Source of the DNA: Eledone cirrhosa
Taxonomy: Eukaryota
DNA length: 47,549 bases
Direction of reading: 5' to 3'
Assembly (NCBI GenBank): GCA_964016885.1
Contig: CAXHJY010001407.1
Span: 1-47,549, forward strand
The notes beneath the pieces were generated by a model that saw nothing but the letters and a program-made list of their open reading frames with translations, was not told the origin of the DNA and searched no databases. The position numbers and the translations under genes were made by a program. Positions 3,149 through 41,211 of this stretch are shown here, piece after piece (position 1 is the stretch's first letter; each line of letters begins with the position of its first letter).

Positions 3149-3371
3149 TATTTATATATATATATATATATATATATAATAATAATAAGGGTTGACGGAC
3201 CCAGCATATTTATCAATGCCAGTACCGGTTGTATCTCAGCGCACTCAATGGGCAATGTAAGATACATTACCAGAGTATACACATAGTTATTTCCCACTCT
3301 ACTACTCTAAGTATGACCCCCGACGGCAGAGCTCAAGCCGTTTCGACGGCTATTTCTGGACTCGGTGGTGC

Positions 3372-3416
3372 GGGGCTCTGATGATCGCCAACACCGTGAA
3401 ACAGGCTGTTAGCTTC
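3372..3416 (+). ncRNA. Putative type I hammerhead ribozyme
   Basis: GGGGCT-CTGATGA-TCGCCAACACCGT-GAA-ACAGGCTGT-T^AGCTTC; stems I and III pair, stem II is weak. Confidence 0.6.
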
Positions 3417-3956
3417 TCTCTCTTCTTTCGCCGAAAAGAAGTAAGTGACATAGTCACTACTTTAAAACCGATAGTGTATGGTCTTAAAAATGTTTTTAAT
3501 TAAACATACGGTATATTGCCAAATATACTATACATACATTCATGTATACATCGCTATTTCAGAGCATCAATCCTAATATATATATATACTCATACACACA
3601 CATGTATACGTAGGAAAATGTGGCAAGTGTCACAACACAATAATCGTATATGGCGTCTATCTTTGATTTCTCGCTATAATTCAGCGCCATCTACATAGAA
3701 ATCTTAATATGGCCGCCGACTCTAACAGGTCATCTTAAACAAATCATACAACATAATTCAGAACGCAAAGAATCCCAAAATATATTGATTGCCGCTACTT
3801 CAGTCATTTCACTTCGTTCTTTGGCTTCTTGAAATACCAAGGAACCTAACGATTTTTTATGCCCTCCTTGAACCAGTAATAACATTGGGTTTGTTGGTTT
3901 GATTTTTGACAAAGTCAAGTCACATGCTCTGCCAACTTTGTCCTGATAGAAAAAGA

Positions 3957-5914: not shown

Positions 5915-6010
5915 AAAGTTATATTTAAAATCACTGCCAAATCAACTTCCCAAATGCAAGTCGATTGAAAGGTATGTCGTATCTATTTATTTATAAGACT
6001 GTTTATATTG

Positions 6011-6076
6011 TATTTTGTCTGAAGAAGGCATAACATATTGTTAATATGATATCCCTGAAATATATATAATGAAATA
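6011..6076 (+). ncRNA. Type I hammerhead motif, PLE pLTR family A
   Basis: TATTTTGT-CTGAAGA-AGG...CCT-GAA-ATATATAT-A^ATGAAATA. Confidence 0.7.
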
Positions 6077-6113
6077 AATATGGTTTTATAAATATAGTTT
6101 CCATTTATTTAAT

Positions 6114-6191
<78 letters not shown>

Positions 6192-6602: not shown

Positions 6603-6698
6603 AAAGTTATATTTAAAATCACTGCCAAATCAACTTCCCAAATGCAAGTCGATTGAAAGGTATGTCGTATCTATTTATTTATAAGACTGTTTATATTG

Positions 6699-6764
6699 TA
6701 TTTTGTCTGAAGAAGGCATAACATATTGTTAATATGATATCCCTGAAATATATATAATGAAATA
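6699..6764 (+). ncRNA. Type I hammerhead motif, family A (duplicate of 6011-6076)
   Basis: Same sequence as 6011-6076 inside a local direct duplication. Confidence 0.7.
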
Positions 6765-6801
6765 AATATGGTTTTATAAATATAGTTTCCATTTATTTAA
6801 T

Positions 6802-6859
<58 letters not shown>

Positions 6860-8372: not shown

Positions 8373-8643
8373 ATGTTTCCCCCCAAAATTAACGTAAATG
8401 CTAGCTCTTCTTCCTTTCTCTTCTTTCCTACGCATACAATAACTTATCATAATTATTTAAATTTTCCATAGCGTCTAAAATAATGTTTTTTTCAGCCCTT
8501 TTATTTAAACCTCATTTGCATACACATCTTAATAATTTGAAATATCTGACTTTTCTTCTCTTATCCCTTCACTATCCAAGGATAACTTGAACTGTTAAGG
8601 TATATTCTCCTTGGTTATGTCAAAATTTATAAAACACACTTCG

Positions 8644-8704
8644 TATTTTATCTGATGATAGCGTACCAAAATGTTGGTACCCTTGAAATATATATAATAG
8701 AATA
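8644..8704 (+). ncRNA. Type I hammerhead motif, family A
   Basis: TATTTTAT-CTGATGA-TAGCGTACCAA...TTGGTACCCTT-GAA-ATATATAT-A^ATAGAATA; in a pLTR-like segment next to the PLE RT fragment. Confidence 0.72.
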
Positions 8705-8894
8705 AATATGGTTTTATAAATGTAGTTTCCATTTATTTAATATCATTGTATATTATACTCCAGAAAACCTTTAGAGTGCTCTGAATCAGTTATAAACATT
8801 TATATTTGTTGAATTACCAACAAATTGAATATCCCTTCTCTGCTTATATATACATATATATATGTATATATATGTGTGTGTGTGCGTATATATA

Positions 8895-10140: not shown

Positions 10141-10888
10141 TACGTTTAAATAGCTTGACAAATTGAAAATTGCGGCAAGCAAAACCCAGCCATACAATAC
10201 CAAAACAAAGAAAAAAGTAATCAGGTTAGACAACAGACCTGGACAAATCGAACGATATTCTGCAATAAATTTGATATGTTTTTATGGATCTGAAATCAGC
10301 AATCCAACTTACGTAATTGTAGGTCGATTTTGCTTGACCCCAGCCAAAGCTTTGATTTTACTAAGCTTCCACTTGTATTATTATCTCCTAGACCTAATAA
10401 TTAATTAATTAATTTAATTAGACAATTCTGTTGATTGGTTAATTATTTATGTTTGTTTAATAACGTCTAGTCGAGAGCTTTTATTCGGAATGTTGAGCGG
10501 AATTATTTTCCTTTGTTAACACTTTGAAATTACCCGCCAAATGCCGGGGGTTACTTCCCTTGTTGGAAATAACACGTGACAACGAAAGACTAAAGGCTGT
10601 CTATTGTAACAGTTTTCATTGAGTTGCAGTTCACACCGGTTTGAGGCATAGAACGAAATACCTGTCGATGACGTGAATCCCCTGTTCGATCATAGAATAC
10701 CACAAGCTTACGTATTACGTAAGTTGGATTGATGATTTCGGATTCCATAGAAACATATCGGACGTATTGCAGAATATCGTTCAATTTGTCCAGGTCTGTT
10801 GTCTAACCTGATTAGTTTTTTCGTTGTTTTGGTATTGTATGGCTGGGTTTTGCCTGCCGCAATTTTTAATTTGTCAAGCTATCTAAAC

Positions 10889-10891
<3 letters not shown>
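10141..10891. mobile_element. MITE-like element with imperfect terminal inverted repeats of about 175 bp
   Basis: 10141-10317 is the reverse complement of 10714-10891; TA at both ends; non-coding. An overlapping second inverted pair is 10026-10089 / 10314-10377. Confidence 0.6.

Positions 10892-12914: not shown

Positions 12915-12918
<4 letters not shown>
12745..12918 (-). mobile_element. 5'-truncated copy of the CORE-like SINE
   Basis: Reverse complement of about 40729-40900. Confidence 0.75.
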
Positions 12919-12998
<80 letters not shown>

Positions 12999-13054
12999 CA
13001 AGTAAGAATATTTTCGAAACAGCGAGTGGGTTTCAAATTATTAGAAATGTAAGC

Positions 13055-13166
13055 TATCGCCGTATTTTGACTAAAGAAATTAAAGAAATTATTTAGCCTG
13101 ATAGTGGGGTTCTTAACCCCATTATCAGGCTAAATAATTTCTTTAATTTCTTTAGTCAAAATACGG

Positions 13167-13171
<5 letters not shown>
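13055..13171. repeat. Near-perfect palindrome
   Basis: 57-bp arms around a CTT loop at 13112-13114, one mismatch seen. Confidence 0.9.
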
Positions 13172-13260
<89 letters not shown>

Positions 13261-13368
13261 TATATATATATAATATATATATATATAATATATATATATA
13301 TAATATATATATAATATATATATATATGAAATATATATATATAATATATATATATATATGTATAATAT

Positions 13369-14204: not shown

Positions 14205-14266
14205 GAGGTTATATTTATGCAGAGGTTATATCTAATTTGTTGGGATTCAACAAGCTTAAAAATCTG

Positions 14267-14332
14267 TATTTTATCTGATGAAAGCGCACCATAATTTACC
14301 TTGGTCGCCCTTGAAATATATATAATAAATTA
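14267..14332 (+). ncRNA. Type I hammerhead motif, family A
   Basis: TATTTTAT-CTGATGA-AAGCGCACCA...TGGTCGCCCTT-GAA-ATATATAT-A^ATAAAT. Confidence 0.65.
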
Positions 14333-14381
14333 ATTATGGTTTTATAAATATAGTTTCCATTTATTAATATATTGTGTATAT

Positions 14382-14428
<47 letters not shown>

Positions 14429-16463: not shown

Positions 16464-16507
<44 letters not shown>

Positions 16508-16509
<2 letters not shown>

Positions 16510-17010
16510 CAATATATTAATAAATGGAAACTATATTTATAAAACCATATTTATTTCATTTAACATATTTCAAGGACACCAAAGCAAATTATGGTGCGCT
16601 TTCATCAGATAAAATATAATATACATCAGTTTTATAAACAAATATTGACATACCTTTCAAAGAATGCGACCATGTCGGTTGGAAGCTCCCGGATAGTGGG
16701 GTTATTAATTTTATTATTGGTCTATTATGCAAATTAGTGTCGGCTTAATTTAAATGTATGGAATTTAAACCTCTCCGACACTAATTTGCATAATAGACCA
16801 ATAATAAAATTAATAACCCCACTATCCGGGAGCTTCCAACCTACATGGTCGCATTCTTTTAAAGGTATGTCAATATTTGTTTATAAAACTTATCTATATT
16901 ATATTTTATCTGATGAAAGCGCACCATAATTTGCTTTGGTGTCCTTGAAATATGTATAATGAAATAAATATGGTTTTATAAATATAGTTTCCATTTATTA
17001 ATATATTGTA
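16508..17010. repeat. Fold-back inverted repeat with an HHR in each arm
   Basis: 236-bp arms (16508-16743 / 16775-17010), 31-nt spacer. Confidence 0.9.
16902..16966 (+). ncRNA. Type I hammerhead motif, family A (mirror copy at 16552-16616 on minus is damaged in stem III)
   Basis: TATTTTAT-CTGATGA-AAGCGCACCA...TGGTGTCCTT-GAA-ATATGTAT-A^ATGAAATA. Confidence 0.7.
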
Positions 17011-17095
17011 TTTTTACTCCAAAAATTTGTTGAGTGCATTATATCAGTTATAAAAATATCTGCTTGTTATATCCCAACAAATTAAATATAACTTC

Positions 17096-17212
<117 letters not shown>

Positions 17213-17972: not shown

Positions 17973-17978
<6 letters not shown>

Positions 17979-20900
17979 ATAAATGCTCTGAAATAGCGAT
18001 ATATATGTGAGTATAGACATAGAATATTCGAAAATATTCTGTATGTTTATAATAAACATTTTGAAGACCTAATCGCTATAGAATAGAATACGTCACGTAT
18101 TACAATTAGATTCTCGACAAAAGCAAGGGAAGTAATCTACGCGTTTCATTCTTGTTAGAATTCATCAGGACTACATATCCAGTGCTTTTATCGAGAATGA
18201 CACAGCTAGAGACTTATAGAATACTTAGCTGTGTACTGGAACTGGTTTGAAAGAGCGGTTGCCGGTCCGGCAGAAATTAGAAATTGGAATAAATGCTCTG
18301 AAATAGCGATATATATGTGAGTATAGACATAGAATATTCGAAAATATTCTGTATGTTTATAATAAACATTTTGAAGACCTAATCGCTATAGAATAGAATA
18401 CGTCACGTATTACAATTAGATTCTCGACAAAAGCAAGGGAAGTAATCTACGCGTTTCATTCTTGTTAGAATTCATCAGGACTACATATCCAGTGCTTTTA
18501 TCGAGAATGACACAGCTAGAGACTTATAGAATACTTAGCTGTGTACTGGAACTGGTTTGAAAGAGCGGTTGCCGGTCCGGCAGAAATTAGAAATTGGAAT
18601 AAATGCTCTGAAATAGCGATATATATGTGAGTATAGACATAGAATATTCGAAAATATTCTGTATGTTTATAATAAACATTTTGAAGACCTAATCGCTATA
18701 GAATAGAATACGTCACGTATTACAATTAGATTCTCGACAAAAGCAAGGGAAGTAATCTACGCGTTTCATTCTTGTTAGAATTCATCAGGACTACATATCC
18801 AGTGCTTTTATCGAGAATGACACAGCTAGAGACTTATAGAATACTTAGCTGTGTACTGGAACTGGTTTGAAAGAGCGGTTGCCGGTCCGGCAGAAATTAG
18901 AAATTGGAATAAATGCTCTGAAATAGCGATATATATGTGAGTATAGACATAGAATATTCGAAAATATTCTGTATGTTTATAATAAACATTTTGAAGACCT
19001 AATCGCTATAGAATAGAATACGTCACGTATTACAATTAGATTCTCGACAAAAGCAAGGGAAGTAATCTACGCGTTTCATTCTTGTTAGAATTCATCAGGA
19101 CTACATATCCAGTGCTTTTATCGAGAATGACACAGCTAGAGACTTATAGAATACTTAGCTGTGTACTGGAACTGGTTTGAAAGAGCGGTTGCCGGTCCGG
19201 CAGAAATTAGAAATTGGAATAAATGCTCTGAAATAGCGATATATATGTGAGTATAGACATAGAATATTCGAAAATATTCTGTATGTTTATAATAAACATT
19301 TTGAAGACCTAATCGCTATAGAATAGAATACGTCACGTATTACAATTAGATTCTCGACAAAAGCAAGGGAAGTAATCTACGCGTTTCATTCTTGTTAGAA
19401 TTCATCAGGACTACATATCCAGTGCTTTTATCGAGAATGACACAGCTAGAGACTTATAGAATACTTAGCTGTGTACTGGAACTGGTTTGAAAGAGCGGTT
19501 GCCGGTCCGGCAGAAATTAGAAATTGGAATAAATGCTCTGAAATAGCGATATATATGTGAGTATAGACATAGAATATTCGAAAATATTCTGTATGTTTAT
19601 AATAAACATTTTGAAGACCTAATCGCTATAGAATAGAATACGTCACGTATTACAATTAGATTCTCGACAAAAGCAAGGGAAGTAATCTACGCGTTTCATT
19701 CTTGTTAGAATTCATCAGGACTACATATCCAGTGCTTTTATCGAGAATGACAGTACACAGCTAAGTATTCTATAAGTCTCTAGCTGTGTCATTCTCGATA
19801 AAAGCACTGGATATGTAGTCCTGATGAATTCTAACAAGAATGAAACGCGTAGATTACTTCCCTTGCTTTTGTCGAGAATCTAATTGTAATACGTGACGTA
19901 TTCTATTCTATAGCGATTAGGTCTTCAAAATGTTTATTATAAACATACAGAATATTTTCGAATATTCTATGTCTATACTCACATATATATCGCTATTTCA
20001 GAGCATTTATTCCAATTTCTAATTTCTGCCGGACCGGCAACCGCTCTTTCAAACCAGTTCCAGTACACAGCTAAGTATTCTATAAGTCTCTAGCTGTGTC
20101 ATTCTCGATAAAAGCACTGGATATGTAGTCCTGATGAATTCTAACAAGAATGAAACGCGTAGATTACTTCCCTTGCTTTTGTCGAGAATCTAATTGTAAT
20201 ACGTGACGTATTCTATTCTATAGCGATTAGGTCTTCAAAATGTTTATTATAAACATACAGAATATTTTCGAATATTCTATGTCTATACTCACATATATAT
20301 CGCTATTTCAGAGCATTTATTCCAATTTCTAATTTCTGCCGGACCGGCAACCGCTCTTTCAAACCAGTTCCAGTACACAGCTAAGTATTCTATAAGTCTC
20401 TAGCTGTGTCATTCTCGATAAAAGCACTGGATATGTAGTCCTGATGAATTCTAACAAGAATGAAACGCGTAGATTACTTCCCTTGCTTTTGTCGAGAATC
20501 TAATTGTAATACGTGACGTATTCTATTCTATAGCGATTAGGTCTTCAAAATGTTTATTATAAACATACAGAATATTTTCGAATATTCTATGTCTATACTC
20601 ACATATATATCGCTATTTCAGAGCATTTATTCCAATTTCTAATTTCTGCCGGACCGGCAACCGCTCTTTCAAACCAGTTCCAGTACACAGCTAAGTATTC
20701 TATAAGTCTCTAGCTGTGTCATTCTCGATAAAAGCACTGGATATGTAGTCCTGATGAATTCTAACAAGAATGAAACGCGTAGATTACTTCCCTTGCTTTT
20801 GTCGAGAATCTAATTGTAATACGTGACGTATTCTATTCTATAGCGATTAGGTCTTCAAAATGTTTATTATAAACATACAGAATATTTTCGAATATTCTAT

Positions 20901-23387
20901 GTCTATACTCACATATATATCGCTATTTCAGAGCATTTATTCCAATTTCTAATTTCTGCCGGACCGGCAACCGCTCTTTCAAACCAGTTCCAGTACACAG
21001 CTAAGTATTCTATAAGTCTCTAGCTGTGTCATTCTCGATAAAAGCACTGGATATGTAGTCCTGATGAATTCTAACAAGAATGAAACGCGTAGATTACTTC
21101 CCTTGCTTTTGTCGAGAATCTAATTGTAATACGTGACGTATTCTATTCTATAGCGATTAGGTCTTCAAAATGTTTATTATAAACATACAGAATATTTTCG
21201 AATATTCTATGTCTATACTCACATATATATCGCTATTTCAGAGCATTTATTCCAATTTCTAATTTCTGCCGGACCGGCAACCGCTCTTTCAAACCAGTTC
21301 CAGTACACAGCTAAGTATTCTATAAGTCTCTAGCTGTGTCATTCTCGATAAAAGCACTGGATATGTAGTCCTGATGAATTCTAACAAGAATGAAACGCGT
21401 AGATTACTTCCCTTGCTTTTGTCGAGAATCTAATTGTAATACGTGACGTATTCTATTCTATAGCGATTAGGTCTTCAAAATGTTTATTATAAACATACAG
21501 AATATTTTCGAATATTCTATGTCTATACTCACATATATATCGCTATTTCAGAGCATTTATTCCAATTTCTAATTTCTGCCGGACCGGCAACCGCTCTTTC
21601 AAACCAGTTCCAGTACACAGCTAAGTATTCTATAAGTCTCTAGCTGTGTCATTCTCGATAAAAGCACTGGATATGTAGTCCTGATGAATTCTAACAAGAA
21701 TGAAACGCGTAGATTACTTCCCTTGCTTTTGTCGAGAATCTAATTGTAATACGTGACGTATTCTATTCTATAGCGATTAGGTCTTCAAAATGTTTATTAT
21801 AAACATACAGAATATTTTCGAATATTCTATGTCTATACTCACATATATATCGCTATTTCAGAGCATTTATTCCAATTTCTAATTTCTGCCGGACCGGCAA
21901 CCGCTCTTTCAAACCAGTTCCAGTACACAGCTAAGTATTCTATAAGTCTCTAGCTGTGTCATTCTCGATAAAAGCACTGGATATGTAGTCCTGATGAATT
22001 CTAACAAGAATGAAACGCGTAGATTACTTCCCTTGCTTTTGTCGAGAATCTAATTGTAATACGTGACGTATTCTATTCTATAGCGATTAGGTCTTCAAAA
22101 TGTTTATTATAAACATACAGAATATTTTCGAATATTCTATGTCTATACTCACATATATATCGCTATTTCAGAGCATTTATTCCAATTTCTAATTTCTGCC
22201 GGACCGGCAACCGCTCTTTCAAACCAGTTCCAGTACACAGCTAAGTATTCTATAAGTCTCTAGCTGTGTCATTCTCGATAAAAGCACTGGATATGTAGTC
22301 CTGATGAATTCTAACAAGAATGAAACGCGTAGATTACTTCCCTTGCTTTTGTCGAGAATCTAATTGTAATACGTGACGTATTCTATTCTATAGCGATTAG
22401 GTCTTCAAAATGTTTATTATAAACATACAGAATATTTTCGAATATTCTATGTCTATACTCACATATATATCGCTATTTCAGAGCATTTATTCCAATTTCT
22501 AATTTCTGCCGGACCGGCAACCGCTCTTTCAAACCAGTTCCAGTACACAGCTAAGTATTCTATAAGTCTCTAGCTGTGTCATTCTCGATAAAAGCACTGG
22601 ATATGTAGTCCTGATGAATTCTAACAAGAATGAAACGCGTAGATTACTTCCCTTGCTTTTGTCGAGAATCTAATTGTAATACGTGACGTATTCTATTCTA
22701 TAGCGATTAGGTCTTCAAAATGTTTATTATAAACATACAGAATATTTTCGAATATTCTATGTCTATACTCACATATATATCGCTATTTCAGAGCATTTAT
22801 TCCAATTTCTAATTTCTGCCGGACCGGCAACCGCTCTTTCAAACCAGTTCCAGTACACAGCTAAGTATTCTATAAGTCTCTAGCTGTGTCATTCTCGATA
22901 AAAGCACTGGATATGTAGTCCTGATGAATTCTAACAAGAATGAAACGCGTAGATTACTTCCCTTGCTTTTGTCGAGAATCTAATTGTAATACGTGACGTA
23001 TTCTATTCTATAGCGATTAGGTCTTCAAAATGTTTATTATAAACATACAGAATATTTTCGAATATTCTATGTCTATACTCACATATATATCGCTATTTCA
23101 GAGCATTTATTCCAATTTCTAATTTCTGCCGGACCGGCAACCGCTCTTTCAAACCAGTTCCAGTACACAGCTAAGTATTCTATAAGTCTCTAGCTGTGTC
23201 ATTCTCGATAAAAGCACTGGATATGTAGTCCTGATGAATTCTAACAAGAATGAAACGCGTAGATTACTTCCCTTGCTTTTGTCGAGAATCTAATTGTAAT
23301 ACGTGACGTATTCTATTCTATAGCGATTAGGTCTTCAAAATGTTTATTATAAACATACAGAATATTTTCGAATATTCTATGTCTATA

Positions 23388-23391
<4 letters not shown>
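17973..23391. mobile_element. Retrozyme-like array 1: 310-bp HHR-containing monomer, about 5.7 copies then about 11.7 inverted copies
   Basis: Unit starts at 17973, 18283, 18593, 18903, 19213, 19523. Orientation flips at 19751-19752; inverted units start at 19751, 20061 ... 23161. Units look identical by eye, there is no ORF, both sides are (TA)n, and each unit holds one HHR (6 on minus, 12 on plus). Confidence 0.92.
19791..19879 (+). ncRNA. Type I minimal hammerhead ribozyme (representative copy of 18 in array 1)
   Basis: GTAGTC-CTGATGA-ATTCT(AACA)AGAAT-GAA-ACGCGT-A^GATTAC (19815-19857): complete core, 5-bp stem II, palindromic stem III, 6-bp stem I. Stem I extends past an internal loop via ATTCTCGATAAAAGCA/TGCTTTTGTCGAGAAT. 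Predicted cleavage after 19851. Confidence 0.9.
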
Positions 23392-23418
<27 letters not shown>

Positions 23419-23419
<1 letters not shown>

Positions 23420-24518
23420 CTATATAAATTGGAAGTGGTCGGACGTTGTATATTTAAGTAAGTAAGTAGGTGTAGTCGGATAAACATCGAAACGGCTTGG
23501 TGGAATGCAGCAAAAATTTAGACATTTATGCAGAATGACCCGAGAAGGCGTTGGGTAGACTTTCAAGCTACAAGCTTCCATGGTTACGGAGAAAATCGAT
23601 GAAACAGAAATTTCCCATTCAAATTGAACTGAGAGTAATCTGTGAACGCAGAAGTAAATATTACGAGAAACGTTGCAACCGAAGGAAAACAGGAAGACCA
23701 TATTTTGGTTCGTGAAGACGTTCCCTGGCAATGAACGGAAAAAAACGCGAGGATAATACGTCGTTATGTGGAGCGTGAAGAACAATTTCATGCAAAGACA
23801 AGACCAAGTTTATGGTATAAATGGAGTCGTTAGACTAATATTCTATTGAACATAACAGAATGATTTCCATCCCCGGAGTTTAAGAATGATGTAAATAAAA
23901 TTGAAAACGAAAATGACAGAGGTTATTAAAATAGTAAAAGTAAATAGTGAAGATTTAGGCCAGTACATACGTATGCCCCGACGTACATACACATACATAC
24001 GCACACACAAATACATACCCGCACACACACACAAACACACAAACACACACACACACACAGACACACAGACACACGAGCGCGCGTGTATAAACCTTATGGA
24101 TTTCTACAGTATTTTCACCAAACGTAAGACATAGGTTACTTATGTACTCCGGATGGTCATGGGCACTTTCATTTTTCCATATATTGATTATAGGGCCTCC
24201 CGACAGATAACCCCCTTTAACCACTTCCTTGGAGTCGACTGAAGAACTGCAGTGCAATGCAACAAAACGTCATAACCTCTGGAGTTCGCAACCGATTTTC
24301 ACAAAACTTGACACATGGGCTACGTTTGTCCTACAGATGAATGTGAACTCTCAGAATTGGCACATATTGAGTAGGGGACCCCTGGGGGCAGGAACCCCCT
24401 TTGGAAAAAGCCGATGATTTTGTAAAAGTATAGTTTTCGAAGCAGCACTGAAGTATTGACATAAATGTTATACACAACTGCTATTTAATACTCGAGCAAC
24501 GCCGGGTAGCTCTGCTAG
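23419..24518 (+). mobile_element. Non-autonomous Helitron family B
   Basis: Near copy of 37647-38708; ends CTCGAGCAACGCCGGG-TAGCTCTG-CTAG|T. Confidence 0.75.
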
Positions 24519-24524
24519 TATATA

Positions 24525-24631
24525 TAATTGTTTCTACTTTTGGCACAAGGCCAGCAATTATCTCAGAGCATTACTGGTACTTTATTTTATCGACCCTGTA
24601 AGGATGAAAGGCAAAGATAACCTCGGCGGGA
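24525..24631 (-). mobile_element. SINE 3' half
   Basis: Core and tail of the same family. Confidence 0.7.
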
Positions 24632-24639
24632 TAATGATA

Positions 24640-25755
24640 TTAAATAAAGAGATGATTATTGAATTCTATTAATGTTTTCCGTGCTGTTAGAATTATATGC
24701 ATTTCATCACTAGATAAATCTGTATGTTTCGATGCGTAGATAAGAGCCCTATTAAGTAAACTAGGAGTAATAGAGGAGTAGTAATGAATTTTTTGTTATG
24801 TTTAAATTTTATGTTATTGAACCAATCGATAACTTCATTAGTACCGTTCCATAGTTTCAGGTGTGATTTTTCTTTAAATTGTGGGATAATTCTATCGAAT
24901 ATATGTTTGCTAATTATGCCTAAGTCTGATTTAGATGGTGCTATAAGTCTGACTGGTAGTTCTATTTCAAAACTTCTTTTGTGGTCTTTCAGGTTAATTT
25001 TCGGTTTTCTGGGTATAAAGGGTTCAGTCCAATTTTGGATGCCTAATTTATGAATTATTTCAGAAGCTTCTCTATTTAACGTTAAAAGATCTTCATTTGT
25101 TGTTATTTTGTAGTTTTTTCTGAGTTCTTTCAATATAAGGTTATTATATTCGTCCTTTTCCATTCCATATAAATTATTAGTTTTATCAGATTTTACGAGG
25201 ATCTTCTTAGTTTTTTCAAGATTGTCTATATTATTCTTGAGGCCTTAAAGGTATTCCTGGCCTATAAATTGGTTTTTCTTGAATTTAATGTTTTGTATAA
25301 TAGATATTACTTCATTTTCAAATTCAGTTAGTAGTTTGTTGCTAGTGGATTCTTCTTAGATTTGAAGATAAGATCAAAGTTGTAACTCGATTTATTTATT
25401 TTTTCATCTGATTTTCTATCGAAATGGAAAGCACGCCATCTAAGTCTTCGTATAAAGGAGTCAAATTTCTCAATGAGTTGTTTTAGATATTCCTTATTCT
25501 TAGGTAAGGGTACATCTTTTAGAGAGGAAGAAATCCTAAAGAATTCCATTATTTAGCAATCAGTTATAATTTAAAGTGCTCGACATTAAAGGGGCTATTT
25601 ATAAGTAGAAGGGATATTTAATTTGTTGGAAATTCACCAAATATAAATGTTCATAACTGATTCAGAGCACTCGACAAGATTCTGGAGTAAATATTCAATG
25701 ATATTAAATAAATGGAAACTATATTTATAAAACCATATATATTCTATTATATAGA
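24640..25755 (-). mobile_element. Penelope-like element 5' part (pLTR tail plus ORF N-terminus), same family as 7352-8372
   Basis: SLKDVPLPKNKEYLKQLIEKFDSFIRRLRWRAFHF, VKSDKTNNLY and LKDHKRSF..PVRLIAPSKSDLG; nucleotide similarity to 8020-8370. 25600-25755 is the reverse complement of the sequence following the family A HHRs. Confidence 0.88.
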
Positions 25756-26042: not shown

Positions 26043-27025
26043 TCGCAAACTCCATCCACCAGAGCATTAGAGTTACTATAGACTACCCAAGTAGACACCC
26101 CAACCATCGATTACCTGTACTAGACACAGAGCTCTGGTTAGATACCATTAACAACCAAAAACAAAACCTCCATTCCCATTATGCCAAACCCATGACTTCC
26201 AAACATCTGATCCACCGAAACTCGGCCATTTCGGACCATACCAAAATCAACATACTGATTGCGGATTTGGTACGGGTGATGAGAAATGTGTCCCGCATGT
26301 GCAACCCCGAAGAACTAGAGAGACACATACAACACTTCATCCACCGTATGCAGTTCTCTGGCTACAATCAGAGAGATAGAATCAGAGTGTATAGAGGAGC
26401 CAGAACCAAATGGGAAAAAATGGTAAATAATGACATAAATGGGACCAGCCCCTTGTATAGGAGCAAATTTTGGAATAGAATAGAAAGAACTAGGAACAAG
26501 GCTAATAGAATAAACTCATGGTATGATAGCAATAAATACCAGAGTGTAATGTTCATCGATACAACCCCTAGAGGCGAACTAGCCTACAAATTTAGAAGGG
26601 CCCTAAATAAACATAAACTCAATATTAAGATAGTAGAAAGACCAGGTACCTCCGTAAAAACACTTATTAGCAAGACATACCCTTTTCAAAGACCCTCATG
26701 TATAGATAAGAAATGTATAACCTGTAAAATGGCGCATGCGCAAACTGAGCACACAACACACACACAGAAACAAAATGGCGTAGGACAGAACAAAGGAGAG
26801 GCACAGAAACAAAGAAAGGAATCCCCAGTCACTGAAGAGGTCACAGAGTGTGTGACGAAAGGACTATGACCATATATAAACAACTATCTGGTTGTGGAAC
26901 CAACCAACCAACCAGAAATTTATAAATTTATAAATTTGTAAATTTATAAATATATAATAAATTGAAGTGAAAGCAACTGGTGCGTGTGTTTCTTATTGGC
27001 AACATGACCCTCCCAAAGTATAACT
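26043..27025 (+). mobile_element. Second Penelope-like lineage: RT C-terminus/thumb plus Cys linker, endonuclease missing, then HHR/pLTR
   Basis: Open frame with LPVLD, YAKPM, SAIS...KINIL, RMQFSGY, FIDTTPRGELA, KIVERPGTSVK and CIDKKCITC, then a switch to non-conserved sequence containing an HHR. The tail ATGACCCTCCCAAAGTATAAC recurs near 5080-5101. Confidence 0.8.
26828..26870 (+). ncRNA. Type I hammerhead motif at the 3' end of the second PLE ORF
   Basis: GTCA-CTGAAGA-G-GTCACA(GAGTG)TGTGAC-GAA-AGGACT-A^TGAC; one extra G before stem II. Confidence 0.7.
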
Positions 27026-27967
27026 ATATCTATATAATTTTAAGTTTAATTTTTTAATTTTTTTAAAATTCTTTAATTCTTACACTATATTTTTCCATTG
27101 ACACCCTCTAAAGCTATTTTTAAACGTAGATTAATAACCATTAACTGACATTAGAAAAATCCTATTCAAGACGATTTTTAAACATTCACTCTTCTTTCGA
27201 CTAAATAATTAATTAATCTCACACTAACTCTTAAAAAATGTATCGATTAACAAACAAAATTGGAATTATCTTTCCTTTCTCAATCATATAAACTTATTAC
27301 ATTATTATATACGTAACTCCGTTAAATTAAAACATTCTCAAAGCCGAACAGGATATTCAAATATATAAATTCATAATTTTAACTACCTATTTATTTACAT
27401 AAAATACAAAATCAACCTCCCTCGTAACTCATATTATAAACAACCACCTAAAACTTGAACTACCTATTTATTTATTTATTTATTTATTTATTTATCTACA
27501 TTAAACACAAAATCAAAACCCCTCGTAACTAATAATTGAAAATTAAATCTTTAATAATAATACATATGCTATTATTAAAATATATATTGATATTTATATT
27601 TTTAACTCAATACAATATTGTAATAAGATAAATACTTACAAACATAATTCTCCATATAAATATATACATAATATAGGTAAATATTCAAATTTTTCCCCAA
27701 AATTAACGTATATAAGTGGTCTTCTTCTTTTTCTTTTTCCTTTTCCTTTTTCTTTTTCGTTCTTTCTCTCCTACTAATATATCTAAACATTCCATAGCGT
27801 TTAAAATAACGGTTTTTCAATCATATAACTCAACTTCATTTACATATTCATTTGTATACTCATCCTAACAATTTTGAAAAATCCGTTCTTTAAATTCACT
27901 ATCCAAGGAAAATTCAACTGATAAGGTATGTTTCCTTGGCTATGTCAAAATTTATAAAACACATTTG

Positions 27968-28029
27968 TATTTTATCTGATGAAAGCGTACCAAAGTTTTG
28001 GGTACCCTTGAAATATATATAATAGAATA
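27968..28029 (+). ncRNA. Type I hammerhead motif, family A
   Basis: TATTTTAT-CTGATGA-AAGCGTACC...GGTACCCTT-GAA-ATATATAT-A^ATAGAATA. Confidence 0.75.
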
Positions 28030-28744
28030 AATATGGTTTTATAAATATAGTTTCCATTTATTTAATATCATTGAATATTTGCTCCAGAAATCTGTCGAGT
28101 GCACTGAATGAGTTATAAACGTTTATATTTGTTGAATTTCCAACAAATTAAATATCCCTTCTACTTATATATATACGTACATACATATATGTATACAGAC
28201 GTACAGTAGTATGTATATATATATAGATACATGTATATATGTACGTATGGGTTTACCGAACATTTATTATATATGTGTACATGTATGTATATATATACAT
28301 ACTACTGTACGTCTGTATACATATATGTATGTACGTATACATACTTATATTTAAGTAACAGCCGTACTAAGAGTGAGAAATGAAATTTCATTTCATTCTT
28401 TTCCATTTATCGTTTTCGGTACGCCCGGCCAACTAACTCACTCGATATGCAAATTAGGCTGCTCAGCCGTTAATATGCAAAAGGAAAGTATATACGTTCA
28501 AATGTTCAATCATCTAACAGGAAGGTATACGATGCTGACGATAGCTAATAAGTTTGAAAGTAGTTCATCGTTCCTTTGTCAGTGTTGAACAAGGGGCAAC
28601 GATGGTTGCCGAACACTGTACGGTTTAATTCGGGCTGTTTGTTTACAAACAAATCGAACATTTAAGTATCAGCCGTACTAAGAGTTACATTTAAGTATCA
28701 GCCGTACTAAGAGTGAGAAATGAAATTTCATTTCATTCTTTTCC

Positions 28745-29541: not shown

Positions 29542-30321
29542 ATATTCATTAGTTAAGCAAAACAAGGCCACAAATTTTATAAGGAAGACATTATTAGAAG
29601 ATTGTCAACATATTTTAGTTTGATGTAAGGAATATAGAGAATAATAATAATAATATTAATAATAATAATGTCCGTTTACAATTGTTTCGCTACTCCATAT
29701 AATATTTCTGGATCAGATGACTATATATCATTATTGATCTGGTTCAGTTGAAAATAATTAACATATTTAAAAACAGAGCGGCTCATCGGAACTTCAAAGG
29801 AATATAAATTAAAATAAGGAGAGAATGTTATATAATGTAGTGTTTCACTATGGTGTCCTGGTTGTATCAGTTGTCAACCATAATCAAGCAGTATTCATCT
29901 GTCGAGGCTGCATTGTGTGAGATCTGCCTATGTTACCCATAGGCAGATCTCACACAATGCAGCCTCGACAGATGAATACTGCTTGATTATGGCTGACAAC
30001 TGATACAACCAGGACACCATAGTGAAACACTACATTATGTAACATTCTCTCCTTATTTTAATTTATATTCCTTTGAAATTCCGATGAGCCGCTCTGTTTT
30101 TAAATATGTTAATTATTTTCAACTGAACCAGATCAATAATGATATATAGTCATCTGATCCAGAAATATTATATGGAGTAGCGAAACAATTGTAAACGGAC
30201 ATTATTATTATTAATATTATTATTATTATTCTCTACATTCCTTACATCAAACTAAAATATGTTGACAATCTTTTAATAATGTCTTCCTTATGAAATTTGT
30301 GGCCTTGTTTTGCTTAACTAA

Positions 30322-30328
<7 letters not shown>
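29542..30328. repeat. Long palindrome, 391-bp arms, 5-nt loop
   Basis: Centre CTGCCTATG-TTACC-CATAGGCAG at 29933-29937; about 6 mismatches between arms seen by eye. Confidence 0.92.
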
Positions 30329-37010: not shown

Positions 37011-37646
37011 GAAAACGCTTTAATAAAAAAAAATATCAACTGTAATGTATGTATGCATGTATTTATGTGTTTATATGAGCGGGGATATGCAAGTAAATCT
37101 TACTTTGTGGACAGCTGCCCCTTAGCATAATATTCATGCTAGAACAGCATATATTTGAAAGTTTTCAGGGAGTTGAATTACTGATTTTGGATCGGCAGCT
37201 TTAGCTTTGAAAAAATGAAATGTGCAGTGTAAACATTTTTTATTATTCCTCCGGGGATGAATCTTCTCGGCCTTTTCCAATCTCTTTCTTTCTCTCTGGA
37301 AGAAATCAGCCGTAGTAAGACCTAAAAAAATGGTTAGATACACCATGACGCACCGTGCATCACGGTGGAGTTGAAAAGCAGACTCAGAACATGGCGTTGT
37401 GTGTGGGGGGGGGGGGGCTTGCAGCCCAATGTTCCAGGGGGAGCAGAAGAAGAAGAAGAAGAAGAAGAAGAAGAAGAAGAAGAAGAAGAAGAAGAAGAAG
37501 AAGAAGAAGAAGAAGAAGAAGAAGAAGAAGAAGGTGTGAGCTGGAGTCCTATCAAATATGTAGGTTGTGTCTTAGATTGAAGGTTTAGTAGAAACAATTC
37601 ATGTATAGTTTTGTACTTTTCTTTTTGTCATTCATATATAAACAAA

Positions 37647-38707
37647 TCTAATATAGAAATTGGAAGTGGTCGGACGTTGTATATGTAGGTGTAGTCGGAT
37701 AAACGTCGAAACGGCTTGGTGGAATGCAGCGAAAATTTACACAGTTATGCGGAATGACCCGAAGAGGCGTTGGGTAGACTTTCAAGCTACAAGCTTCCAT
37801 GGTTACGGAGAAAATCGATGAAACAGGAATTTCCCATTCAAATTGAACTGAGAGTAATCTGTGAACGCAGAAGTAAATATTTCGAGAAACGTTGCAACCA
37901 AACGAAAACAGAAAGACGATATTTTGGTTCGTGAAGACGTTCTCTGGCAATGAATGGGAAAAAAGCGAGGATAATACGTCGTTATGTGGAGCGTGAAGAA
38001 CAATTTCATGCAAAGACAAGACCAAGTTTATGGTATAAATGGAGTCGTTAGACTAATATTCTATTTAAAATAAGAGAATGATTTCCAACCCCGAGTTTAA
38101 GAATGATGTAAATTAAATTGAAAACGAAAATGACAGAAGTTATTAAAATAGTAAAAGTAAATAGTGAAGATTTAGGCCAGTACATACGTATGCCCCGACG
38201 GAATACACATACATACGCACACACAAATACAGACACACCCATAAACACACACACACACGCGCACGCGCGTATGTATAAACCTTATGCATTTCTACAGTAT
38301 TTTCACCAAACTTAAGATATAGGTTACTTATGTACTCCGGAGGGTCATGGGCACTTTCATTTTTACAGATATTGATTATAGAGCCACCCGGCAGATAACC
38401 CCCTTTAACCACTTCCTTGGAGTCGACTGAAGCACTGCAGTGAAATGCAACAAAACGTCATAACTTCTGGAGTTCGCAACCGATTTTCACAAAACTTGAC
38501 ACATGGGCTACGTTTGTCCTACAGATGAATGTGAACTCTCAGAATTGGCACATATTGAGTAGGGGACCCCTGGAAGCAGGAACCCTCCTTTGGAAAACAG
38601 CCGATGAATTTGTAAAAGTATAGTTTTTTAAGCAGCACTGAAGTATTGACGTAAATGTTATACACAACTGCTATTTAATACCCGAGCAACGCCGGGTACC
38701 TCTGCTA

Positions 38708-38708
<1 letters not shown>
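37647..38708 (+). mobile_element. Non-autonomous Helitron family B
   Basis: A|TCTAATATAG start; CCCGAGCAACGCCGGG hairpin and CTAG|T end. Confidence 0.8.
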
Positions 38709-38748
<40 letters not shown>

Positions 38749-38751
<3 letters not shown>

Positions 38752-39993
38752 ACAAACATAGAATATTCGAAAATATTCTGTATGTTTATAATAAACATTT
38801 CGAAGACCCAATCGCTATAGAATAGAATACGTCACGTATTACAATTTGAGATTCTCGATAAAAGCAAGGGAAGTAACCTACGCGTTTCATTCTTATTAGA
38901 AATCATCAGGATTACATATCCAGTGCTTTTATCGAGAATGACACAGCTAGAGACTTATAGAATACTTAGCTGTGTACAGGAACTGGTTTGAAAGAGCGGT
39001 TGCCGGTCCGGCAGAAATTAGAATTTGGATATAATGCTCTGAAATAGCGATATATATGTGAAGACAAACATAGAATATTCGAAAATATTCTGTATGTTTA
39101 TAATAAACATTTCGAAGACCCAATCGCTATAGAATAGAATACGTCACGTATTACAATTTGAGATTCTCGATAAAAGCAAGGGAAGTAACCTACGCGTTTC
39201 ATTCTTATTAGAAATCATCAGGATTACATATCCAGTGCTTTTATCGAGAATGACACAGCTAGAGACTTATAGAATACTTAGCTGTGTACAGGAACTGGTT
39301 TGAAAGAGCGGTTGCCGGTCCGGCAGAAATTAGAATTTGGATATAATGCTCTGAAATAGCGATATATATGTGAAGACAAACATAGAATATTCGAAAATAT
39401 TCTGTATGTTTATAATAAACATTTCGAAGACCCAATCGCTATAGAATAGAATACGTCACGTATTACAATTTGAGATTCTCGATAAAAGCAAGGGAAGTAA
39501 CCTACGCGTTTCATTCTTATTAGAAATCATCAGGATTACATATCCAGTGCTTTTATCGAGAATGACACAGCTAGAGACTTATAGAATACTTAGCTGTGTA
39601 CAGGAACTGGTTTGAAAGAGCGGTTGCCGGTCCGGCAGAAATTAGAATTTGGATATAATGCTCTGAAATAGCGATATATATGTGAAGACAAACATAGAAT
39701 ATTCGAAAATATTCTGTATGTTTATAATAAACATTTCGAAGACCCAATCGCTATAGAATAGAATACGTCTCGATAAAAGCACTGGATATGTAATCCTGAT
39801 GATTTCTAATAAGAATGAAACGCGTAGGTTACTTCCCTTGCTTTTATCGAGAATCTCAAATTGTAATACGTGACGTATTCTATTCTATAGCGATTGGGTC
39901 TTCGAAATGTTTATTATAAACATACAGAATATTTTCGAATATTCTATGTTTGTCTTCACATATATATCGCTATTTCAGAGCATTATATCCAAA
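38749..39993. mobile_element. Retrozyme-like array 2: 312-bp variant monomer, about 3.3 copies plus an inverted partial copy
   Basis: Unit starts at 38749, 39061, 39373, 39685; inversion at 39768-39769. Same family as array 1 with fixed differences. TA-rich flanks. Lies in the Galpha intron between coding exons 1 and 2. Confidence 0.92.
39790..39832 (+). ncRNA. Type I minimal hammerhead ribozyme (array 2 variant; 3 more copies on the minus strand)
   Basis: GTAATC-CTGATGA-TTTCT(AATA)AGAAT-GAA-ACGCGT-A^GGTTAC; core intact, U.U at the base of stem II. Confidence 0.85.
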
Positions 39994-40107
39994 AATATAT
40001 ATATATATATATACATGTAAAGTTATATTTAAAATTGTTGGGTTACAACTAGTAAATATTTATAACTGATATAAAAGCACTCGACAAATATTTGGAGTAT
40101 ATTTACA

Positions 40108-40908
<801 letters not shown>

Positions 40909-41026: not shown

Positions 41027-41211
41027 GTGCTTCCGGTTCCGGGAAAAGTACCTTTATTAAACAAATGAGAATCAAATATGGTGACGGCTTTCCCGAAAAT
41101 GAACGCCATTACTTCAAACCATTTATTTACGAGAACATCACGCATGCGCTGCATCATGTCTTAGATCACATGGTAAACATGAAAATCATATATAATGACC
41201 CCTCGATGCAT
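41027..41211 (+). CDS. G-protein alpha subunit, coding exon 2 (P-loop and alphaA)
   Basis: tttttcatatAG acceptor, GTAAGT donor, 185 nt, phase 1 to 0. Encodes (G)[61 protein letters not shown], collinear with Gq [23 protein letters not shown]...VYQNI. Confidence 0.93.

Follow-up and report, generated by a model that had tools for sequence, protein, structure and literature searches.

Head-to-head arrays of a 310-nt hammerhead repeat in Eledone cirrhosa resemble animal retrozymes and carry insertion features of Penelope-like elements (PLEs)

Animal non-LTR retrozymes were among the closest described systems. In related animal retrozymes, the RNA accumulates mainly as circles made after self-cleavage, as described in parts of PMC7229834, whose supplement shows further invertebrate examples. 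Cleavage occurs in dimers when helix III is minimal (passages of PMC7229834, PMC4209133 and PMC7761336). The retrozyme class, the circle hypothesis and the link to Penelope-like elements (PLEs) are already published. The mobility of retrozymes, however, is still hypothetical. The 2020 proposal of a circular template and a PLE helper had, by 2026, gained support from co-occurrence and homology only. PLE insertions bear three marks according to PMC8557442: a 5'-truncated copy in inverted orientation, (TA)n as the target, and a tail of 30-40 bp that only one end carries. In AT-rich DNA, a purified PLE protein cut each of the two strands and extended it, and reverse transcription began at two positions inside the RNA that lay one tail length apart (PMC11167929). 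The same study found that insertion by this protein in vitro could proceed without ribozyme cleavage.

The window analyzed here was the whole 47.5-kb stretch of Eledone cirrhosa contig CAXHJY010001407.1 (positions 1 to 47,549). A repeat of about 310 bp was present at two loci, array 1 (17973-23391) and array 2 (38749-39993), and the features are collected in Table 1. Counted from the predicted cleavage site, the monomer was 310 nt long in array 1 and 312 nt in array 2. Monomer positions refer to the array 2 monomer unless stated otherwise. The stretch at 38749-39993 was an inversion and not a simple tandem array, its minus-strand arm holding 3.27 copies and its plus-strand arm 0.72 copy. Both arrays (2 of 2) were head-to-head inversions in the ribozyme sense, and an inverted 5'-truncated copy lay beside the 5' end in both. 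The arms overlapped by 2 bases at each inversion junction, and the junctions lay at different monomer positions (246/210 in array 1, 46/254 in array 2). All four arms matched their own monomer exactly (5421 bases in array 1 and 1247 in array 2). All four, including the 0.72-copy right arm of array 2, passed through the predicted cleavage site. The 310-nt unit was non-coding, without LTR structure and without the RT and GIY-YIG endonuclease ORF of an autonomous PLE. Its GC content was 35% (108 of 310 bases). No Pfam family was found in the three array frames scanned, and no match to the A/B-box consensus was found in the monomer. With regard to the criteria for retrozymes, the arrays consisted of tandem units within 150-450 bp, each with a type I hammerhead, and their GC content was below 45-50%.

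Table 1. Features of the window. Monomer positions are counted from the predicted cleavage site.
Feature	Position	Strand	Remark
Array 1, left arm	17973..19752	-	5.74 identical 310-nt copies; 3' end at 165 (long end)
Array 1, tail	17973-18009	-	at the long end of the left arm
Array 1, right arm	19751..23391	+	11.75 identical copies; 3' end at 130 (short end), into (TA)n
Array 2, left arm	38749..39769	-	3.27 identical 312-nt copies, exact monomer match; from monomer 46 to 3' end at 130 (short end), into (TA)n
Array 2, right arm	39768..39993	+	0.72 copy: monomer 254-312, then 1-167 (long end)
37-nt tail, monomer 131-167	39957..39993	+	right end of array 2 only, absent from the left
Two small hairpins of the 3' module	39907..39945	+	upstream of the tail; common to the element at 3340-3577
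(TA)n target left of array 2	38709..38748	.	flank sequence
Shorter TA run right of array 2	39994-40012		
Type I hammerhead motif, 43 nt	39790..39832	+	core pattern; predicted cleavage between 39826 and 39827
89-nt hammerhead with stem I extension and 16-bp distal helix	39475..39563	-	fold z = -7.0, 200 shuffles
Hammerhead proper in the 89-nt domain	39497-39539	-	
Further hammerheads, array 2 left arm	39185-39227 and 38873-38915	-	
Third element	3340..3577	+	different hammerhead-like core at 3378 joined to the 3' module
Second hammerhead-like family	5971-6125, 6659-6813, 8643-8809, 14265-14382		
Second family, continued	16502-17100, 25644-25753, 27965-28155, 40013-40455		
Other hammerhead-like cores	5379, 13580, 29217	-	several unrelated families
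Other hammerhead-like cores	11076, 28535, 28828, 46121	+	several unrelated families
1.1-kb repeat	23403-24526 and 37634-38716		91% alike; partial copies at 2-335
Inverted duplications	29542-30328, 12917-13301, 2558-2958, 10141-10891		no hammerhead core found; several bounded by TA runs
Truncated retroelement ORF	26048-26731	+	RT C-terminal region, CX4CxxC motif
G-protein alpha (q-like) internal exon	41027-41211	+	starts near residue 39

The outer ends followed a fixed pattern. In each array, one outer 3' end was at 130 and the other was at 165 (167 in array 2 numbering), and the short and long ends were on opposite sides in array 1 compared with array 2. The offset was 35-37 nt, and the rough chance of the same two ends in both arrays was 0.0025. 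All four outer ends ran into TA repeats, as did the third element and loose read ends. When target-site duplication was examined, both flanks of the arrays were TA runs. The third element was older than the arrays. Its 3' module was about 80% like monomer 69-165 (the 3' ~110 nt), with the same long end before (TA)n. In the hairpins of the 3' module, 14 of 14 pairs were kept in all five rows, with one two-sided change. This change was not significant as covariation, since it was reached by 88 of 500 shuffles. Among loose ends in TA runs, the short end accounted for 275 raw reads and 9 contigs, and the long end for a single contig. Opposite-strand joints were also seen in the runs, at other monomer positions. 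In run X23, 3112 loose ends at 39345, together with the read ends at 39331 and 39470, were rejected as element ends because they coincided with AATT sites; X23 is a chimeric reduced-representation library. The 18-base tail motif had 0 matches in viral contigs. Its 16 matches in metagenomes were alike only over 18-43 bases around the motif and were treated as chance. No PLE sharing the tail or the 3' module was found in these collection scans of viral contigs and metagenomes, and the ribozyme pattern had 0 matches in metagenomes.

A type I hammerhead core was present in every copy (18 in array 1 and 4 in array 2), with CUGANGA, GAAA and a UH cleavage site. In the predicted fold, the 6-bp helix I was distally closed, and helices II and III were loop-closed. 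Helix III was short and palindromic, and the invariant ACGCGT was predicted to form a 6-bp duplex of -9.5 kcal/mol. The 89-nt domain gave fold z values of -7.0 (39475..39563) and -6.4 for the two variants, and each circular monomer folded better than 100 of 100 shuffles. Rfam gave 0 matches in the window at the gathering threshold. The Hammerhead_HH9 model aligned over model positions 1-77 at 19.9 bits (39790..39832) and 22.1 bits, far below its cut-off of 52. With regard to a loop 1-loop 2 tertiary contact, the model placed a 6-nt loop II and an internal loop in stem I at these low scores. Other Rfam matches at the E-value level were hairpin look-alikes. A G10.1-C11.1 pair at the base of helix II is highly conserved in canonical hammerheads, according to part of PMC4209133. 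This pair was absent here. It was replaced by U.U in array 2 and in ~95% of the raw reads, and by A-U in array 1. However, U.U at this position has an active precedent in axolotl HHR_Amex2 (part of PMC7229834), so that the missing pair denotes a variant that still belongs to the hammerhead class. T likewise stood on both sides at the base of helix II in the hammerhead-like cores at 3378, 5379, 13580 and 28535.

We are confident that the arrays are an animal non-LTR retrozyme, and PLE-driven insertion is likely. In the whole model, to which we give a probability of about 0.55, the arrays are young retrozyme insertions whose RNA was self-cleaved, circularized and copied by a PLE into (TA)n. Next to the observed anatomy, uniformity, end positions and allele spectrum, we infer transcription, cleavage, a circle and a helper enzyme. 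The non-coding 310-312-nt hammerhead repeat would be transcribed, and the transcript would be self-cleaved as ribozyme dimers and then circularized. The RNA would be copied back into (TA)n DNA by a PLE protein, whose endonuclease would make a cut in each strand of a TA run. Reverse transcription would be primed by each of the free ends at one of two sites in the 3' module, 35-37 nt apart, and would continue for a varying number of turns of the circle. Head-to-head joining of the two cDNAs at a 2-base overlap would follow. Variants that spread would be those keeping a workable ribozyme. The zero variation within arrays and the 5% between them are explained if each array is a clonal copy of one RNA variant. 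Several results counted against this model. In vitro, 8 of 9 predicted frog retrozyme dimers were uncleaved, as reported in part of bioRxiv 10.64898/2026.07.22.740005, and cleavage was dispensable for insertion. The missing G10.1-C11.1 pair and the low HH9 scores were also unfavorable. A further proposal, which we hold only tentatively, is that each array was printed clonally into DNA, in one step, from one circular RNA molecule. A PLE dimer would use the two cut strands as primers, at two sites separated by 37 nt, and would roll round the circle on both sides, giving inverted double concatemers.

Since all four arms crossed the cleavage site, the template was not a cleaved linear monomer. It would be a circle or an uncleaved multimer and, given PLE mobilization, a circle is somewhat favored. 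The other template assumes the same element and PLE helper, with an uncleaved linear multimer of a long uniform source array that was twin-primed without a circle. We consider it unlikely, although unprocessed RNA was the dominant substrate of purified PLE (PMC11167929). The minimal stem III and the predicted misfolding of the array 2 ribozyme would suit an uncleaved template and, as array 1 shows, there are source arrays with at least 12 identical copies. However, array 1 would need an uncleaved transcript of at least 18 identical ribozyme units (>5.4 kb), with ribozymes able to dimerize. The allele spectrum described below also pointed to cleavage under selection. The circle is favored because of the transcript that array 1 would otherwise need and because related retrozymes accumulate as circles after self-cleavage.

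Growth of the arms as satellite DNA was also considered. Here, a short inverted PLE-type fragment would be inserted first, and the arms would then grow by unequal exchange or slippage. Local satellite growth is the route favored in the discussion of bioRxiv 10.64898/2026.07.22.740005. The arm lengths varied widely (0.72 to 11.75 copies), and recent expansion or homogenization could give perfect identity. However, separate expansion of the two arms of array 1 would have to leave them identical over 5421 bases, and flanking repeats in the window showed ordinary divergence. Even then, the seed would have to come from a template that was circularly permuted and longer than one unit. Satellite growth is therefore improbable, and copying of a circular template by a PLE is the preferred reading.

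The two array monomers differed by 16 substitutions and one 2-nt indel, which was 5% between arrays and zero within. The initial annotation had described these differences as changes that preserve the ribozyme stems. Its individual observations were present in the sequence: stem I was GTAGTC/GATTAC in array 1 and GTAATC/GGTTAC in array 2, the distal helix U.G became U-A, loop II changed from AACA to AATA, the core and ACGCGT were unchanged, and each array was internally uniform in all arms. The supposed opening of the first stem II pair was a real difference (A-U versus U.U). It was not a loss in array 2, however, since U.U is the family majority and the A-U form was found in 112 of 2106 reads. 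As covariation, the differences carried less weight. All three pair-keeping changes were one-sided, with A/G opposite U, and no pair was changed on both sides. Given 16 random substitutions, an untouched 17-nt core had P=0.40. There was 1 change that broke a confident pair, compared with 3.1 expected from random placement of the same substitution types for the array 1 fold (P=0.12) and 4.4 expected for the array 2 fold (P=0.03). Selection was not established by the arrays alone because they were two variants only and the pattern was marginal.

The preservation of the stems was formally true, but the active fold of array 2 stem I was predicted to be weaker. In nearest-neighbor folding without tertiary contacts, stem I of array 2, with G2, was predicted to slip, and core C3 was paired with a probability of ~0.93 compared with 0.22 in array 1. 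The predicted active fold was 3.6 kcal/mol above the minimum in array 2 and 0.4 kcal/mol in array 1. The slip was due to G2, as the difference was 1.5 kcal/mol without it, and the combination of G2 with the G279 of array 1 was the worst (6.6 kcal/mol). These values suggested that the array 2 ribozyme may misfold, which fits relaxed rather than tight selection.

Variation across the family was obtained from 4 of 24 listed runs, none of the 24 being on record as RNA, by alignment to one monomer. These were the contigs of runs X1, X4 and X5 (three organism labels) and the raw DNA reads of run X23. Two contig sets (501 and 2555) and 8898 reads aligned to one monomer, showing many dispersed copies and variants of the hammerhead repeat in the genome. 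The X23 majority had the stem I of array 1 (A2 in 1995 of 2531 and G279 in 1985 of 2476). The two stem I alleles of array 2 were at 21% and 20% in X23 and at about 4% and under 0.1% in X4, and they occurred together in a single X5 contig. They are a subfamily mark, which fits either stem compensation or plain linkage. In X5, one low-depth contig of 342 bases, with a different organism label, closed on itself and held a full monomer with the array 2 stem I.

Among the listed alleles (4% and above), the only variable core position was N7 (A in 518 and C in 99 of 2080; 25% and 5%). N7 is left free by the established hammerhead consensus. A change was counted as tolerated when it was in a loop or at N7, or when it kept or made a pair, which applies to 25-34% of possible changes in the 43-nt ribozyme. 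All 8 listed substitution alleles in the 43-nt ribozyme were tolerated (P 1e-5 to 2e-4), as were 12 of 13 in the 89-nt domain. Without the alleles that had framed the question, the counts were 4 of 4 (P 0.004-0.013) in 43 nt and 7 of 8 (P 0.001-0.012) in 89 nt. A stem I insertion allele (110 of 2537 reads) was not tolerated by the rule and was outside the substitution count. When it was counted, the values were 8 of 9 (P up to 0.001) and, for new alleles, 4 of 5 (P 0.015-0.046). In the whole monomer, 36 of 40 listed alleles were tolerated, and the four pair-breaking alleles were in the distal helix (one) and in two other hairpins (three). These P values are rough, because X23 is a reduced-representation library and the alleles mark subfamilies rather than independent events. 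Neither the window nor the listed alleles contained a change on both sides of a pair within the ribozyme. A U-A to C-G change in the distal helix is hinted at by loose ends in X4, and one hairpin pair had alleles on its two sides, at 102 (76%) and 117 (7%), but these came from unlinked contigs and were not counted as covariation.

The common alleles sit in loops, at N7 or where they keep wobble pairs, as expected if spreading variants keep a workable ribozyme. A workable ribozyme is therefore likely to be under selection. The selection on RNA structure proposed in the initial annotation thus found support in the family-wide alleles, and neither in the two-array comparison nor in covariation. 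Under neutral drift, the variants would be random and the pairs kept by chance or shared ancestry. The marginal two-array test and the subfamily inheritance of alleles, including two stem I alleles that may be merely linked, would allow this. However, drift is very improbable in view of N7 as the only listed variable core position, the tolerance of the non-framing alleles, and the variable positions 268, 269 and 275, which were all in internal loops. As a separate observation, derived alleles at 2, 20, 70, 78, 126, 278 and 297 leaned to A>G on the ribozyme strand. Sense-strand A>G numbered 7 compared with 2 T>C (P=0.057, hand-polarized against the read majority). This lean is a lead for RNA editing or strand-biased mutation.

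An assembly artefact, in which read fold-back or repeat collapse produced the copy number, uniformity or inversion, is hardly credible: 17.5 copies stood without one difference, PLE structures are known to trouble assemblies (part of PMC8557442) and the read support concerned family joints and not the junctions or copy numbers of these two loci, but the flanks were not mirrored, the ends were at fixed monomer positions, tandem and opposite-strand joints occurred in independent runs (the head-to-tail joint in 1770 raw reads with ~90 starts), and a collapsed consensus would not give read-rare alleles fixed in array 1 (G20 4%, C129 4%, A289 5%) and in array 2 (G78 1%, G70 3%, G126 5%). The initial annotation had argued against a pure artefact and for independent insertions of two variants. 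Both points held, the latter by the different junctions and the different, unmirrored flanks. A segmental duplication of array plus flank was rejected, as the shared 1.1-kb neighbor was on opposite sides in the same orientation.

The window was repeat-rich and dense in hammerhead-like cores. A second hammerhead-like non-coding family, with nine cores, was located in TA runs and had two alternative 3' ends ~85 nt apart. Both of its inverted pairs consisted of one short and one long arm, the same rule as in the arrays. One of these pairs started ~20 bases from the right end of array 2. The 1.1-kb repeat abutted both arrays at opposite ends. It ended with a short hairpin and CTAG before (TA)n, which we take to resemble a Helitron 3' end. 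Array 2 is probably in the intron preceding the G-protein alpha exon. In this intron, plus-strand ribozymes could cut the pre-mRNA.

The truncated retroelement ORF was considered with regard to the helper. Its best match was an Octopus vulgaris protein with 66% identity, and 56 matches among 241 candidates were longer relatives. By our own reading of their sequences, these appeared to contain a GIY-YIG-like domain downstream of an RT that bears a YVDD motif. Pfam gave only a weak RVT_1 match, in 1 of 6. This layout suggests Neptune/Nematis-type PLEs as a candidate class of helper. The tail motif was absent from the ORF fragment, so this ORF is not shown as the partner.

The arrays themselves bear the insertion marks of PLEs, and they point to two likely priming sites and a 3' module. 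This anatomy makes retrozyme mobilization testable in vitro and genome-wide. The initial annotation mentioned neither the inversion and the tail, which are the more telling feature, nor the retrozyme class. The variation that it did describe carries less weight by itself, being a modest sign that is to be expected of any live ribozyme family. If the one-step print were true, the genome would document directly that a PLE can reverse-transcribe a ribozyme circle in rolling-circle fashion. The thousands of arrays in the genome would then be an archive of RNA variants, possibly with copied-in A-to-I edits.

In the literature, no description of a cephalopod retrozyme family or of tail-bearing inverted retrozyme arrays was found in a search outside supplements, with thin coverage of the subscription literature. 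The words "inverted" and "octopus" were absent from the main text of PMC7229834, "tail" and "inversion" from the main text of bioRxiv 10.64898/2026.07.22.740005, and "octopus" from 12 supplementary files of PMC4918200. Compared with the non-LTR retrozymes of mussel, coral and axolotl, as presented in parts of PMC7229834, the arrays shared ~300-nt tandem non-coding repeats of low GC content, one type I hammerhead per unit and several variants per genome. The closest ribozyme forms in those parts were axolotl HHR_Amex1 and Amex2. The palindromic minimal helix III was like that of Amex1, and the U.U at the base of helix II was like that of Amex2. Expression and circles were demonstrated for the retrozymes of PMC7229834, whereas for the present arrays they are predicted. 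The arrays also differed in their head-to-head inversions and in two fixed 3' ends in (TA)n. With the pLTR-hammerhead PLEs, as covered in parts of PMC8557442, PMC11167929 and PMC4209133, they had in common the inverted 5'-truncated copy, the tail at one end, (TA)n targets, tandem copies and a type I hammerhead suited to dimer cleavage. They differed from PLEs in the absence of an ORF, in the 310-nt unit and in that both arms can be multimers. Unlike the pLTR hammerheads described there, the ribozyme had a 6-bp stem I with distal closure and was not the minimal form. Frog retrozymes were interpreted as non-autonomous PLE derivatives in bioRxiv 10.64898/2026.07.22.740005, with the same proposed helper and origin as here. 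The frog case, as given there, rests on co-occurrence and pLTR homology, whereas the present case rests on insertion anatomy.
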